This document shows positions 7,672-59,992 of a DNA stretch of 64,000 nucleotides, piece after piece; position 1 is the stretch's first letter; the number at the start of each line of letters is the position of its first letter. Origin of the DNA: a virus (Duplodnaviria; Heunggongvirae; Uroviricota; Caudoviricetes); IMG/VR virus record IMGVR_UViG_2693429713_000009; one strand, 5' to 3'. The notes under the pieces are model-generated. The model searched no databases. It was given only the letters and a program-made list of their open reading frames with translations, and was not told the origin of the DNA. The translations under genes and the position numbers were made by a program.

Positions 7672-8670
7672 ATGCAATCACTGAATACTGTTACGGATCG
7701 CTTCTCCCTGGTAGAGAAAATCCGCAAACACACACCGCAGAACAACCGAAATTACGTCATTCAGTCGGTACGAGACACATTCAACTCGCCAGAAACAAAA
7801 GAGCGTATCGCGCTGGGTGAGATGTATGGTTATTACGGTCATGGTCGCCGGGCGATGCACTATAACAAAACGAAAAGCCTGAACTTGCCGGAAGTCTCTG
7901 TTGTGATGGTAGATGGGAAGCCTGTTGTATTGGAGAACGTGCCGTCAAACAGGACTATCGACATTTCGATTGACGACAACGGCATTGTTACGCATACGCA
8001 GGAAATACTGGATACAGACACCGGGCGTATTGTTCAGGGCATGATTAATTCTGGTGCTGGTGGTTGGTCGTGGGCTACATCTGGTCCAGATTCATCGGTA
8101 TCCTTGGTAAAGTCTTTCCACGGCTTTGATTACGTAACTGTGCCTAACTATATCAGCCTCGACAAGAAAAGCCTGATGCTTGAATCAGCAGAAGAGCGCG
8201 ATGCGGCTATTCATGCAGCACTTATCGAACAAGGTTTTACCGATAACGCAGCTACGGATCTGGTTCACCACTTTTCAGCAATGAAAAATCAGCAAGCCAT
8301 GCTCGAATCTGCACATCGTGAAGCCCTGGAATCAGAATTGATGCTCCTTGAAGTGGAAAACATACAGCTTCGAGATAAGCTGCGCGCTCAAACAGCGATG
8401 ATGGAAAGCCAAGGGGAAAATGCAAAGCAATGCCGCCGGATTTTGCGTGACGCTATCCAGGAAATGCCTGTTTTTATCAGCGCAGAACAGCGCCGGGCGC
8501 TCTGCCGTATGCAGTCTGAAGATGATGCCCGCATAGTGGCTGCGATGCTTGAATCTCTTGGGGCAAATGCTACTTATGGCTTACCGGTATCAGGCAAGAA
8601 AGAACCAGAGTTATCACCGAAGGAGAACAAAAACACCACCCCGTTACTCTTCGTTTCTAGAAGGGGGTGA
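7672..8670 (+). CDS. hypothetical protein, possible prohead protease/scaffold
   Basis: 332 aa, 13 nt after upstream gene; helical acidic C-terminal half. Confidence 0.3.
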   Translation: MQSLNTVTDRFSLVEKIRKHTPQNNRNYVIQSVRDTFNSPETKERIALGEMYGYYGHGRRAMHYNKTKSLNLPEVSVVMVDGKPVVLENVPSNRTIDISIDDNGIVTHTQEILDTDTGRIVQGMINSGAGGWSWATSGPDSSVSLVKSFHGFDYVTVPNYISLDKKSLMLESAEERDAAIHAALIEQGFTDNAATDLVHHFSAMKNQQAMLESAHREALESELMLLEVENIQLRDKLRAQTAMMESQGENAKQCRRILRDAIQEMPVFISAEQRRALCRMQSEDDARIVAAMLESLGANATYGLPVSGKKEPELSPKENKNTTPLLFVSRRG

Positions 8671-8688
8671 TTGCCTTGTTAAGTTAAA

Positions 8689-8697
8689 TTTCTAACA
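8689..8697. promoter_or_regulatory. C1-type operator-like motif TTTCTAACA
   Basis: Member of recurring TGTTAGAAAA/TTTTCTAACA family; followed by AGTGTA-N6-TACACT dyad and a cluster of three GATC sites (8721-8750) upstream of RepL-like gene. Confidence 0.45.
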
Positions 8698-8785
8698 TAG
8701 TGTATTTATATACACTGTTGATCCTGGTGGATGGGATCGAGTAGGATCGCGGTCACTGCTCCGGTAGCGACTGCCAAAAAAGCAA

Positions 8786-8808
8786 AAGCCGCTGAGAAGC
8801 GGCTTTTT
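8786..8808 (+). terminator. intrinsic terminator
   Basis: AAGCCGC-TGAGAA-GCGGCTT followed by TTTTT. Confidence 0.6.
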
Positions 8809-8870
8809 GGGCGTATAAATCCACTGCCATAGATTTATACGGTAGATAGATTTTTTCACGGAACTATCTG

Positions 8871-9833
8871 GTGAGTATTTTAAATTCAGTTTCAGTAACT
8901 TTCAACACTTCTGAGTATAAAAACAACACTGAATACCACAAAAAAATCAAAGGTCATCAGTTGAGTTTTTTTGCTCGTCATAGCGGTCTTCTTTCCCCTT
9001 CACATAGCGCCATTATTGCCGAGTTCGCCAACCTGGCAGGGTCTACCGATGAATACATGATCCGTCGCTCATATGCTGATATGTCCGAGATTACAGGACG
9101 CAGTATTTCTACTGTGCGCCGGGCATTTGCTGAAGCGACGAAGTGCGGAATGCTTGTTAAGCAACATCAGGTAGCGAATAACAATGCCCAGGTGTGTAAC
9201 GTATATCGGTTTACGACACAATTTCTCCACTTCATTCATGTAGCAATGGAGATAGGGGGTAAGCAGGGCATCAAATTTGCCAACGCCACAAAACTGGTTA
9301 AGCAGTTGATTTCAAAGGTTCGTTATTTTTTTGAAACTGGGAACCCCCTGTTCAAATTGAACAAGTCCCCCCATGTTCAAATTGAACAGCCAATAGAAAA
9401 TAAGAGTCACTCTATAGCAAAAAGAAGAGAAAGATCATGCGCGGTTCAGCCAAAGGCTTCACCAGCAGATAGTTCTCAAGCGGATAATGGGGTACTGGAT
9501 AAAAAACCAGTAATCAGGGAAGAACATACCAACCACTGCCTGGCGGCGGCAAAAGCGAGAGCTGCAAAGCGTCGTTCAGACGAGGGGCACGCAAAACGGC
9601 AGGCTCTGTATCGTACCGCTGAAAAGCTGGCAAAAAAATTTGCATGGATACGTAGTGCCGCTACCGCAGTGAATAAGCCTAAACAATCCAGTGCCCTGGA
9701 TTTCTCAATGGATTATTCTGGCTCCCAGGGGTGTGCAACCATTGGTGAAGCCTTTGACCTGATGAAACAGCGTGGCTATCGGTCTGAATTTGACCGTGAG
9801 GATTGGTCAATCCCGGCGGGCTTTAGGGGATGA
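8871..9833 (+). CDS. RepL-like replication protein
   Basis: 320 aa with HTH-like ITGRSISTVRRAF; operator-controlled promoter; internal twin palindromes. Confidence 0.4.
   Translation: MSILNSVSVTFNTSEYKNNTEYHKKIKGHQLSFFARHSGLLSPSHSAIIAEFANLAGSTDEYMIRRSYADMSEITGRSISTVRRAFAEATKCGMLVKQHQVANNNAQVCNVYRFTTQFLHFIHVAMEIGGKQGIKFANATKLVKQLISKVRYFFETGNPLFKLNKSPHVQIEQPIENKSHSIAKRRERSCAVQPKASPADSSQADNGVLDKKPVIREEHTNHCLAAAKARAAKRRSDEGHAKRQALYRTAEKLAKKFAWIRSAATAVNKPKQSSALDFSMDYSGSQGCATIGEAFDLMKQRGYRSEFDREDWSIPAGFRG
9349..9388. repeat. two copies of 15-bp palindrome TGTTCAAATTGAACA inside RepL-like CDS
   Basis: Perfect dyads at about 9349-9363 and 9374-9388; candidate origin element. Confidence 0.5.
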
Positions 9834-9887
9834 CCTGTGTGTCTACAAAACATCCCAATGATCGGAAAATGCTCGCTCGATGATTTG

Positions 9888-9917
9888 TGTTAGAAAATTA
9901 ATTTGATGTTTCTAAAT
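9888..9917. promoter_or_regulatory. paired operator-like motifs TGTTAGAAAA-N11-TTTCTAAAT
   Basis: Inverted pair of the recurring motif upstream of the icd/antirepressor unit. Confidence 0.5.
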
Positions 9918-10019
9918 CGGAATGTATGATCTGCATCATCGACTGAAGTCATCCATTGCTGAAATTTTTAGTTGATCTTCCATGTTTTCAGGCTTATATT
10001 CATGCCGTCGTAGCAAATT

Positions 10020-10215
10020 CTGCGACCGGGTTTGACAGCCTGAATACTTACGCGGACAACCGCACATTTCCGATATTGCGGTATTTTTGTGTCCGTAAAA
10101 CCACGTTACGCCCGAATTATGGTGGGGCGTGATGGGGAGGCTTCGGCCTGCTGGTTTCGTAAGTGCCAGTCTGTCAACCCTGTCACGTCCTGCCACCTGT
10201 TTGACAGCGGGTCGC
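10020..10215 (+). ncRNA. candidate c4-like antisense RNA region
   Basis: Non-coding leader upstream of icd-like gene with direct repeats GTTTGACAGC (about 10029 and 10199) and complementary CTGTCAACCCTGTCAC (about 10172). Confidence 0.25.
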
Positions 10216-10246
10216 AGGTTGTTTATCAACTTACGAGGCCGTAACT

Positions 10247-10471
10247 ATGGTTAATGCCAATCCTTGCTCACGCCCAGAATTCATCTGGCGTTTCCACTCC
10301 CTGCAAAAACACTGCGATCACTTCGCAATTGCCGCAACCGAAAAAGAAGCCCGTTCTCTGATCCCTGATCAGTATGGTGTTCTTACTGGTCGTTTCTCTA
10401 CTTCCCCACAACCAAACACTAATCCCTGGTATCGCAATATTACCAATCCCGGAATTGCGGAGGCACACTGA
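10247..10471 (+). CDS. Icd-like small protein
   Basis: 74 aa ORF ending in TGATG overlap with antirepressor start, as P1 icd-ant. Confidence 0.35.
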   Translation: MVNANPCSRPEFIWRFHSLQKHCDHFAIAATEKEARSLIPDQYGVLTGRFSTSPQPNTNPWYRNITNPGIAEAH

Positions 10472-11178
10472 TGGAAATCTGCATTCTTGAAAAGCCATCA
10501 ATGACCAGCATTGAGATCGCGGAGCTGGTGGGAAGTCGCCCGGATAACGTTAAACGCACTATTGAACGCTTGAGTAAATCAGGTGTTATTCCACTTCCTC
10601 CAATGGAGGTTTCCGAAAATATCAATAACTTAGGATTTAAAGTTAAAAATTCACACTACGTCTTCGAAGGCGAGCAAGGCAAGCGTGACAGTATCATTGT
10701 CGTTGCGCAGCTTTCTCCCGAATTTACCGCCCGGCTGGTGGACCGCTGGCGCGAACTGGAAGAACAAGTACGCCAGCCGTTGACCGAAATAGAGATGATC
10801 GCCGCAATGGCTGCAAATGCAGTTCAGCAGCAAAAGCGGCTTCATGTTGTTGAGTCAAAGGTTAGCCAGGTGGTAGAAACCGTCGAGCAAATCAAGAAGG
10901 GCAACATGCCAGATGGTTACATTGGCTACCGCCAGCTGGCTGCGAAATGTGGCCTGACCGAAGCCAAATGCCGCAACCTTGTCAACGCTTACCGGATTCC
11001 CACCGATACACATGAGTTTTTAACTCCAGAGGGGGTATTGTCGCGTCGTTCCATCGTGGCCTTATCTCCCTTCATGAATGCTTTTAACCGGATGATGTCG
11101 GAGGCTGAACACCGAGGAAAACGCTGGTATCACCCCAAAATGGGGCAATTCCAGGTGATCGGTTGGGGAGGTGAGTGA
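10471..11178 (+). CDS. antirepressor, Rha/Ant family
   Basis: 235 aa; N-terminal Rha-like regulatory domain. Confidence 0.5.
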   Translation: MEICILEKPSMTSIEIAELVGSRPDNVKRTIERLSKSGVIPLPPMEVSENINNLGFKVKNSHYVFEGEQGKRDSIIVVAQLSPEFTARLVDRWRELEEQVRQPLTEIEMIAAMAANAVQQQKRLHVVESKVSQVVETVEQIKKGNMPDGYIGYRQLAAKCGLTEAKCRNLVNAYRIPTDTHEFLTPEGVLSRRSIVALSPFMNAFNRMMSEAEHRGKRWYHPKMGQFQVIGWGGE

Positions 11179-27208: not shown

Positions 27209-28569
27209 GTCTGGTTAATTGGGAGGAGCACCGCGCCCGCTTTATAGCGTTGCGTGAAGAAAAAGGGATCACTGTAAAGGAATACTGTGAGGAGCATGGC
27301 CTTAGCTTCAATACAGCCAGAAAGCATCTCAATATGAAAAAAAATGAGGTGCGGTCGCAGGTAAAGACAACAAAAAAAAGCACCAAATCACCTGAAAAAA
27401 AACGGGCGGGAAGAGCAACAAAAAAGCTGGAAGAGGGTGCAGAAAAAACAAAATTTACAGAAATTGACAATTCGCAGGGCGCAGGTTCTTTCCGAAGTAT
27501 GCCGAGAAAGAAAACTTCGGATCATGAAAATAATGCAAATAATAACAATGAGATAAAAGAATCTGTCAGGAGATCATTGCGCGAAAAAATGGCGAAAATG
27601 ATCCCCGAAGAAGATAAAAGCGCCCCAAAAATTGAGGGATCTTCAGCAATGATCCCTGGCGGTGCTGTGCAGCGTGCCACATTGCCCACTACGAATGTGG
27701 CTCGCGATATGATGAAGAACGGCGCAGAAGAACACCTGCGGTTAGCAATTCAAATGGCGCAAGAGCGCGCACTTCAGTATCAAAGCATTGTTGATCAGGA
27801 GGCCGAACGTCTACAGGCGGAAATAGACGCCTTGGGCGATAAAGAGCCAGAAGGAATGCACCCTGGGCAGCGCCTTCTCGGTCTAATCAGTGACGCGGCC
27901 TACTACATGAATGATTTTATCAGTAGGTTGGCAGCTATATATCAGTCCGAACAAAAGCTGCGACAGGGGGATGAAAAGCTTCGTCAGAGCGCTCGCCAGC
28001 AAGCATTCAAAGAGGCTGAGGCCAGAGAAAAACTCGAATTAGCACGCCTACAGGCCGAACAGCGTGGCAAAGAGATTGAATATCGCATTGGCGCTGACGC
28101 ACGCGCTGCCAGAGTTATCGCCGCCGCTATACGTATGCGTGAGCGCGAGGAACTGGATGATATCGGTGTTGCTGAATACATCGAGCGCCAGGGGGTCAGC
28201 GTCCCGGCTATCCTCGCGGCGCGCGCGGCGAAAGCTATCACTCTTCTCGAACCACCTGTTTCTGACGTCAATGATGTTGATGATGAACAGCTGGACAAAG
28301 AGGCAAGGGAGTTTGCAACGCTTCAGGCTAACCATCCGCAATGGCTGGCAGAGCGCCGGGCGGATGTGGCAACCATTGTTGAAGAATTGGGGTGCGGAGA
28401 TTACGACCGCAATGGCGAGCGTAAAGCTGGAGAATTCGAGGCCAACGACGAAGAGCTGGATATTGACCCTTCGGCAACGGCTGAAATTTACGGTGATTAT
28501 GATGCATCTGATGCAGGGTATGACGCCGGAGATGATGATATCGCGATAGAACCGCCGGAGGATGATTAA
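27205..28569 (+). CDS. pacA: terminase small subunit PacA-like
   Basis: 454 aa, coupled to terminase large subunit; contains internal GATC-rich pac-like cluster. Confidence 0.65.
   Translation: MSLVNWEEHRARFIALREEKGITVKEYCEEHGLSFNTARKHLNMKKNEVRSQVKTTKKSTKSPEKKRAGRATKKLEEGAEKTKFTEIDNSQGAGSFRSMPRKKTSDHENNANNNNEIKESVRRSLREKMAKMIPEEDKSAPKIEGSSAMIPGGAVQRATLPTTNVARDMMKNGAEEHLRLAIQMAQERALQYQSIVDQEAERLQAEIDALGDKEPEGMHPGQRLLGLISDAAYYMNDFISRLAAIYQSEQKLRQGDEKLRQSARQQAFKEAEAREKLELARLQAEQRGKEIEYRIGADARAARVIAAAIRMREREELDDIGVAEYIERQGVSVPAILAARAAKAITLLEPPVSDVNDVDDEQLDKEAREFATLQANHPQWLAERRADVATIVEELGCGDYDRNGERKAGEFEANDEELDIDPSATAEIYGDYDASDAGYDAGDDDIAIEPPEDD
27520..27654. promoter_or_regulatory. candidate pac site (GATC hexamer cluster)
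   Basis: Five GATC-containing hexamers (GGATCA, AGATCA, TGATCC, GGATCT, TGATCC) within about 135 bp inside pacA, as in the P1 pac site. Confidence 0.45.
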
Positions 28570-59962: not shown

Positions 59963-59992
59963 TGTTAGATAATTAACATGCATTTTCTAACA
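59963..59992. promoter_or_regulatory. paired operator-like motifs TGTTAGATAA-N10-TTTTCTAACA
   Basis: Inverted pair upstream of rdgC. Confidence 0.5.

Follow-up and report, generated by a model that had tools for sequence, protein, structure and literature searches.

A candidate lytic replication origin within the repL gene of a D6-type phage-plasmid

The 64,000-nucleotide stretch of DNA analyzed here (hereafter the window) comes from the IMG/VR record IMGVR_UViG_2693429713_000009 (Caudoviricetes) and represents a phage-plasmid resembling Escherichia phage D6, a plasmid prophage of the P1 family. Positions 8681-9833 probably constitute the lytic replicon of this D6-type element, with the origin, oriL, located within the gene of its own initiator, repL. 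An initial annotation of the sequence had put forward the RepL-like gene as a candidate lytic origin; homology with P1 supports this proposal, with origin function inferred rather than shown for this element. Near the middle of the gene, two short palindromes precede an A-rich tract. With less assurance, we lean towards the view that the sequence pair at their core, TCA-N3-TGA repeated at 24-25 bp directly 5' to the A-rich tract, serves as the site that RepL recognizes throughout the family and forms the initiator-binding part of oriL.

The RepL homolog and the repeats within its gene

Over 8600-9900, the window matches the Escherichia coli plasmid CP088573.1 at 100% identity and phage D6 at 96.7%. 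At an identity threshold of 80%, this region is shared by about 110 non-mobilizable plasmids, each roughly 90 kb long, from E. coli, Salmonella, and Shigella. The plus-strand gene at 8871-9833 begins with GTG and encodes a 320-aa lytic replication initiator with 97.8% identity to D6 orf20, whose annotation reads 'lytic replication protein, similar to P1 gene repL'. In D6, this gene is preceded by prt/pro and followed by icd/antirepressor, and neither an origin nor operators or promoters are annotated in the D6 record.

The encoded protein is a genuine, if distant, homolog of P1 RepL, as the initial annotation had suggested. The open reading frame (ORF) shares 27-29% identity with the P1 protein, and pairwise BLASTP returned an E value of 1e-27 with 29% identity over residues 28-320. 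With tblastn, the RepL sequences of P1, P7, SJ46, and RCS47 were matched across the same residues at 26-30% identity (E ~1e-15 for P1 and P7). The Phage_P1_RepL domain (PF26868) was found on the 98%-identical cluster representative P0001 and on close relatives; a Pfam copy without this model gave only a weak HTH_36 match, and an NCBIfam search with RepL gave no match. The family is narrow, because an exhaustive profile search of 1.84 billion representatives recovered only 33 members at E ≤1e-3. A scan of genome contigs found only two P1-like loci, and few relatives came from a word-indexed protein search.

The window contains exactly two copies of the 15-mer TGTTCAAATTGAACA, at 9349-9363 and 9374-9388; by chance, ~1e-4 exact occurrences would be expected (2 x 64000 / 4^15, our own calculation). 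The copies are 25 bp apart from start to start and separated by a 10-bp gap. The initial annotation had described them as two perfect palindromes 25 bp apart; both are present at that spacing, but each consists of 7-bp arms around one unpaired central base, and the reverse strand hence differs at one position. A run of C precedes each palindrome and extends the similarity to a 20-nt direct repeat with 95% identity and a 25-bp period. We refer to the extended units, which lie on both strands, as candidate RepL boxes. Box 1 (9344-9363) is a C5 run followed by TGTTCA-AAT-TGAACA, and box 2 (9367-9388) is C6-A followed by the same palindrome.

Directly downstream lies a purine- and A-rich tract on the plus strand (9390-9436) that ends in a GATC site (9433-9436), aligns with the AT2 element of P1 and is a candidate DNA-unwinding element. 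Its segment 9392-9436 is the sixth least stable of 918 45-bp segments in the repL ORF; relative to the entire window, its low duplex stability and its purine content both rank at the 99th percentile. Low stability of this kind would fit an unwinding element comparable to P1 AT2.

In P1, oriL has been assigned to the interior of repL since 1989. The P1 record likewise annotates oriL there, matching the parallel drawn in the initial annotation. The window palindromes and tract align with CCCCCATGTCAAAATGATA and CCCCCTGTCAGGATGACG of P1 repL plus AT2. P1 reads CCCCCA-TGTCAAAATGATA, CCCCC-TGTCAGGATGACG, then GGCAATAAAGAATAAGAAGTCAC...AAAAAGATC, and the window reads CCCCC-TGTTCAAATTGAACA, CCCCCCA-TGTTCAAATTGAACA, then GCCAATAGAAAATAAGAGTCAC...GAAAGATC. 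Judged by this alignment, the window palindromes are positional and architectural homologs of the P1 repeat pair that directly precedes AT2. Both elements thus combine a homologous initiator with two mid-gene repeats, each a C-run plus a dyad, followed by an A-rich tract ending in GATC. Unlike P1, with which it shares only 27-29% protein identity, the window has full 15-bp palindromes that are 25 rather than 24 bp apart, with box 1 in another reading frame.

The P1 segment has been dissected by mutation. Synonymous changes within the 43-bp A/T-rich AT2 abolish RepL-driven amplification, and truncated non-coding fragments that keep AT2 work in trans (Huan 2023, PMC9948254). The smallest working fragment, T5, spans ~90 bp (ccccctccccctgtcaggatgacgtggcaataaag...aaaaagatcagtttccggcggtgccgg; PMC9948254 supplement); it contains the second repeat, of which box 2 is the homolog, together with AT2 and a downstream GC palindrome, and is sufficient in trans for RepL-driven amplification. 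DnaA and IHF sites were dispensable in the amplification assay, as was kilA for replicon function. The study remarks on a C/G-rich stretch before AT2 and could not distinguish RepL binding to AT2 from binding to the preceding sequence; the words palindrome, inverted repeat, and iteron are absent from it (PMC9948254). A role of the repeats in RepL recognition is not described there, and an earlier description, for example in the D6 or P1 genome papers, may exist.

Conservation of the repeats and alternative explanations

To the D6 type we compared repL DNA from further lineages, 13 in all: a 65%-identity E. coli clade, two Enterobacter types, Raoultella/Klebsiella, two metagenomic lineages, Xenorhabdus, E. 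kobei, three Pantoea lineages, and P1. An exact TCA-N3-TGA pair is present in 10 of the 13 genes at a relative gene position of ~0.5, and in 12 if one mismatch is allowed; one very divergent Pantoea repL has no such pair. Spacing between the dyads is exactly 24 bp except in the D6 type and its 65%-identity relative, where it is 25 bp. In an alignment of 12 clades, box 1 shows no variation in TCA and TGA. Box 2 shows none in CA and GA, and its two T positions are conserved to at least 90%. On the 3' side of the boxes, every sequence in this alignment continues with a purine-rich tract. The bases flanking the core differ by clade (TGTTCA, TGATCA, CTGCTCA, TGTCA, AGTCA/GGTCA).

The initial annotation had named conservation in relatives as a point on which its proposal would turn, and on this point the proposal is not refuted: the core is kept family-wide, and the arms are invariant among D6-like relatives. 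Across 22 distinct D6-like haplotypes, variation in the palindromes is confined to the central 3 bp (9355, 9356, 9382), and the C-runs do not vary either. Arms are also intact in the 65%-identity clade, with the centers AAA and TGA. Among 49 distinct P1-clade haplotypes, nt 481-510, which cover the second dyad and the start of AT2, form the only 30-nt bin of repL without a variable site.

The window itself carries T at 9382, where the other D6-like haplotypes (22 compared) have A. Palindrome 2 is thereby identical to palindrome 1, and the identical pair is specific to this variant. In Enterobacter and Raoultella repL (L085 2879-2930, L089 2924-2975) the dyads read TGATCA-N3-TGATCA, giving two Dam (GATC) sites per box and four in ~40 bp, without counterpart in the D6 and P1 types. 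These sites could tie origin use to the methylation state.

The reading frames of the boxes indicate the level at which selection acts. Clades with 24-bp spacing read each box as NNT-CAN-NNT-GAN. The wobble base at residues 1 and 3 is T in all 18 canonical-frame dyads, while the residues themselves are diverse (D, A, C, S, G, V / H, A, R, P, G, N, D, F, I, T). With the peptides and the codon usage of the family taken as given, the joint probability of this pattern is ~1e-13, a figure that assumes independence and overstates the case, although its direction is clear. The D6 type has 1 bp inserted between the boxes (column 36 of the 12-way alignment), which shifts the frame of box 1 and leaves its 15 bp of DNA unchanged; box 1 encodes F-K-L-N and box 2 encodes V-Q-I-E. 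Because the wobble T is fixed while the residues vary, the D6 frames differ and the arms are invariant, we conclude from these sequences that the constraint on the boxes acts on DNA and not on protein.

An AlphaFold model of RepL built on nine sequences predicts a winged helix (residues 28-131, predicted local distance difference test score, pLDDT, ~80-88) and a long C-terminal helix. Residues 162-212 have pLDDT <50, a range that spans the codons of the boxes and the A-tract. Boxes and tract are encoded by residues ~160-190, where the peptide is unconserved between clades. The invariant residues S78, T81, V82, R84, and A85 sit in the predicted recognition helix (79-91). We infer that these residues fit the invariant DNA core.

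The boxes could instead be sites through which RepL or another regulator achieves autoregulation or a transcriptional roadblock, with lytic replication starting elsewhere. Initiators commonly autoregulate through their own binding sites, the D6-type elements have no direct origin mapping, and GC skew lends an origin here no support. We nevertheless regard this explanation as unlikely, since RepL-dependent amplification in P1 needs no more in cis than the homologous segment and the boxes adjoin a conserved, low-stability A-rich tract, as those of an origin would.

It is considerably harder to sustain the idea that the palindromes act as hairpins in repL mRNA, affecting its stability, processing, or translation. 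The single strand over the palindromes does fold, singly or paired (-12.4 kcal/mol, z -6.2), and variation in the D6 clade touches loop bases only. Across clades, however, it is specific sequence (TCA, TGA) rather than pairing that is invariant, and in several of them the arms are not complementary beyond the core (Pantoea AGTCA..TGAAC, L087 CTGCTCA..TGAACAG). Slightly less credible again is that the repeats are the by-product of a repeated RepL peptide motif ('PPxQxD'), for example one that docks a host protein. Most clades indeed have dyads 8 codons apart in the same frame and encoding similar peptides (PPCQND / SPCQDD). The D6 type and the 65%-identity clade, in contrast, read the two copies in different frames (LFKLN vs VQIEQ), the first and third residues of the tetrapeptide differ freely between clades under an unchanging wobble T, and the region is predicted to be disordered, with a peptide that is otherwise unconserved. 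Chance can be set aside for the palindromes because they are conserved: single palindromes with 7-bp arms are expected a few times per 64 kb (our own calculation) and the GATC triple upstream of repL discussed below is unremarkable (p ~0.59), but an exact 15-mer found twice, 25 bp apart and nowhere else, and kept in relatives and family-wide, makes this explanation scarcely worth entertaining.

We return to the boxes as candidate RepL recognition sites. The D6-type gene is a natural experiment in which a single DNA box persists in two reading frames; this retention, together with the family-wide wobble T, points to a specific site of 9-15 bp.

The upstream control region and neighboring loci

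The sequence upstream of repL contains several putative regulatory elements. A plus-strand motif at 8681-8697 (AAGTTAAATTTCTAACA) appears to be a C1-type repressor operator and the counterpart of P1 Op53, which the P1 record lists as a C1 operator upstream of kilA-repL. It corresponds to the operator-like motif of the initial annotation and starts 8 bp before the left end given there. The motif is found seven times in the window at ≤3 mismatches, against 0.21 occurrences expected. In the form AAATTAAATTTCTAACA it has 8-9 copies (8681, 9888, 20833, 22082, 26721, 32564, 49775, 50425, 59963), and is likely the D6-type C1 operator. Its core resembles the P1 operator yet is distinct from it (TTCTAACA vs CTCTAATA). 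In D6, repL, immI (c4-icd-antirepressor), lpa, ref, pmgS, and orf117 each have a copy upstream. In P1, several of the operons found next to these copies, lpa and ref among them, are C1-controlled. An inverted partner (tgTTAGAAAat) stands immediately upstream of the site at 59963 and suggests that the operator there is bivalent.

Between the operator and a -35-like hexamer lies the dyad AGTGTAT-TTAT-ATACACT (AGTGTATTTATATACACT; 8699-8716, both strands), which the initial annotation had recorded as AGTGTA/TACACT. It occurs once in the window, with 0 copies expected in shuffled sequence. Its right arm, TACA(C/G)TG, is kept in all pro-repL clades examined, and the left arm in some only. We rejected the dyad as a LexA box because its sequence, GTGT..ACAC, departs from CTGT..ACAG and no more than one good half-site survives in other clades. 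A repeated late-promoter element is unlikely, since the window holds a single copy.

Three GATC sites follow at 8720, 8735, and 8745, within 29 bp. The initial annotation had treated them as a cluster, and they form the sole such triple in the window. Their density is nevertheless unremarkable: 227 GATC sites are spread over the 64 kb, and when sites are placed at random, 59% of trials give one such triple or more. We place the GATC cluster and the dyad outside the origin, in the upstream promoter and regulatory region.

The first and third GATC sites fall within the hexamers of a sigma-70 promoter-like element, TTGATC-18-TAGGAT (8718-8747, plus strand), found in all six clades for which the pro-repL spacer was compared. 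In these seven sequences, TGTTGAT and GTAGGATC are invariant and enclose 17-18 non-conserved nt. The first GATC lies in the -35-like TTGATC and the third in the -10-like TAGGATC, and of the three sites only the third is kept in every clade. The P1 promoter PkilA (P53) has TGGATC as its -35 hexamer and three Dam sites at or beside it. Within the D6 clade, which is otherwise 95-99% identical, the spacer at 8725-8734 is hypervariable and falls into three haplotype groups, with the hexamers unchanged. A weak promoter overlapping the operator (TTGCCT-16-TAACAT) is not conserved, and a candidate minus-strand promoter (TCAACA-16-TATGTT, 8721 to 8694) was rejected because it is not conserved in all clades.

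The repL leader is predicted to contain further elements that could limit expression. A scan of the minus strand identified a G+C-rich hairpin terminator at 8784-8807 that is present in all six clades. It is bidirectional and predicted to be stronger on the minus strand, where the T-runs are longer across the six clades. An inverted repeat, CGTATAAATC-N10-GATTTATACG (8812-8841, both strands), spans 10 bp, or a 13-bp stem when folded, and forms the main stem-loop of a putative antisense RNA. In the D6 clade its stem is invariant and its loop variable, and the 65%-identity clade (L086) shows a double change from T:A to G:C. The window alone among the 22 D6-like haplotypes has C in place of T at 8812, which lengthens the inverted repeat to 10 bp.

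The putative antisense RNA, directed against the repL 5' leader and start codon (8774-8905 with its signals, minus strand), would start from a promoter-like site in the first repL codons (TTGAAA-17-TAAAAT, 8905 to 8877, 10/12 matches), which is the same in L086 and similar in L087. The predicted countertranscript of ~95 nt ends at the terminator (8807 to 8784) and folds at -34.8 kcal/mol (z -5.8). It resembles the product of P1 PaskilA/P53as, PaskilA being annotated at the 5' end of kilA in the P1 record. An Rfam search of 8500-10500 found nothing credible in the repL leader (a sar match had E 0.99).

The control region is P1-like in its putative upstream C1-type operator, a GATC in the -35-like hexamer, a putative antisense promoter where the first gene begins, and a hairpin predicted to end leftward transcription. 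The arrangement differs in that the window operator lies 20 bp upstream of the -35, whereas that of P1 lies over the -10, and in that the window terminator stands between promoter and repL, whereas that of P1 is upstream of the promoter. No kilA is present, as 8698-8870 contains no plus-strand ORF of at least 40 aa and none is annotated in D6. The locus lies between pro and immI, whereas kilA-repL follows immI in P1.

The immI module directly follows repL in the window (9888-11178), and the P1 order is immI, then kilA-repL. It comprises the a1/b1 target element of C4 (9994-10046), the C4 antisense RNA (10115-10200, Rfam 69.6 bits), an icd-like ORF (10247-10471), and a Rha/Roi-type antirepressor (10471-11178). 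A C1-type operator at 9888-9904 adjoins a promoter-like TTGATG-16-TATGAT at 9903-9930. Elsewhere, four GATC sites within 80 bp (27572-27651) in a pacA homolog were considered as a pac site and rejected, as they do not form a TGATCA hexamer array of the P1 type.

A model for lytic replication and its relation to other origins

Several points weigh against an origin at this locus, or against the RepL boxes as part of it. For D6-type elements the proposal depends wholly on homology with P1, where the support comes from fluorescence or copy-number amplification assays and not from origin mapping (PMC9948254). The first P1 repeat is dispensable in trans, T5 having only one, and the P1 repeats themselves were never mutated (PMC9948254). 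Unlike P1, the window has no DnaA box (TTWTNCACA) in or near repL; the search did not extend to IHF sites. GC skew along the window does not switch at repL (9.3 kb) and follows the direction of transcription, and is uninformative. A PDB fold search with the RepL model returned generic winged-helix matches (MarR, ArsR, TFE, and plasmid RepA_N types), all at E >1e-3. Finally, the operator (8681-8697) lies outside the conserved promoter-like hexamers (8718-8747), and the terminator lies between the promoter-like element and repL, both of which sit uneasily with the transcriptional logic of the proposed replicon.

We propose the following model for the replicon. In the prophage state, a C1-type repressor bound at the upstream operator would keep expression off. 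Transcription would proceed from the conserved promoter-like element, with Dam (GATC) sites in both its hexamers, -35 and -10, and the leader terminator and the short antisense RNA from the 5' end of repL may dampen expression further, as P53as does in P1. Dimers of RepL would then occupy the two boxes by means of the N-terminal winged-helix domain, and their binding could melt the adjacent A-rich tract, where the host replisome would be loaded. The encoded stretch of protein may be a disordered linker, which would free its codons to carry the cis-acting site.

This arrangement invites comparison with phage lambda. There, the origin lies inside the O gene, in the part that encodes a flexible linker, and dyad-symmetric repeats bind initiator dimers beside an A/T-rich unwinding region. 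The candidate oriL is alike in lying in the predicted linker-coding part of an initiator gene, with dyad boxes beside an A/T-rich region. It differs in having two boxes rather than four, no detectable DNA similarity, and no adjacent gene for a lambda P-like helicase loader. A relation of RepL to lambda O is weakly suggested by this architecture and by one weak PHROGs match to phrog_391 'replication initiation O-like' (lambda O-like; E 4e-7).

The candidate oriL also resembles iteron origins such as P1 oriR/RepA of the Rep_3 family, which likewise place initiator-binding repeats beside an A/T-rich region and contain GATC. Unlike these, it has two palindromes instead of at least three direct iterons of 17-22 bp, lies inside a coding sequence, and has no DnaA box; RepL, moreover, is not a Rep_3 protein and belongs to an unrelated initiator family.

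A P1-type oriL within repL was already known, and our analysis adds its probable D6-type counterpart and candidate RepL boxes for the family as a whole. If the boxes are indeed bound by RepL, oriL would consist of two RepL boxes and an unwinding element within the codons of a disordered linker, as in lambda O/ori-lambda, and the clade-specific flanking bases (TGTTCA, TGATCA, TGTCA) would set origin specificity. RepL/oriL serves as an inducible copy-number amplifier in synthetic biology, for which a defined minimal origin and a second, possibly orthogonal RepL/origin pair would be useful. The origin feature could also be annotated in ~100 D6-like plasmids of E. coli and Salmonella.

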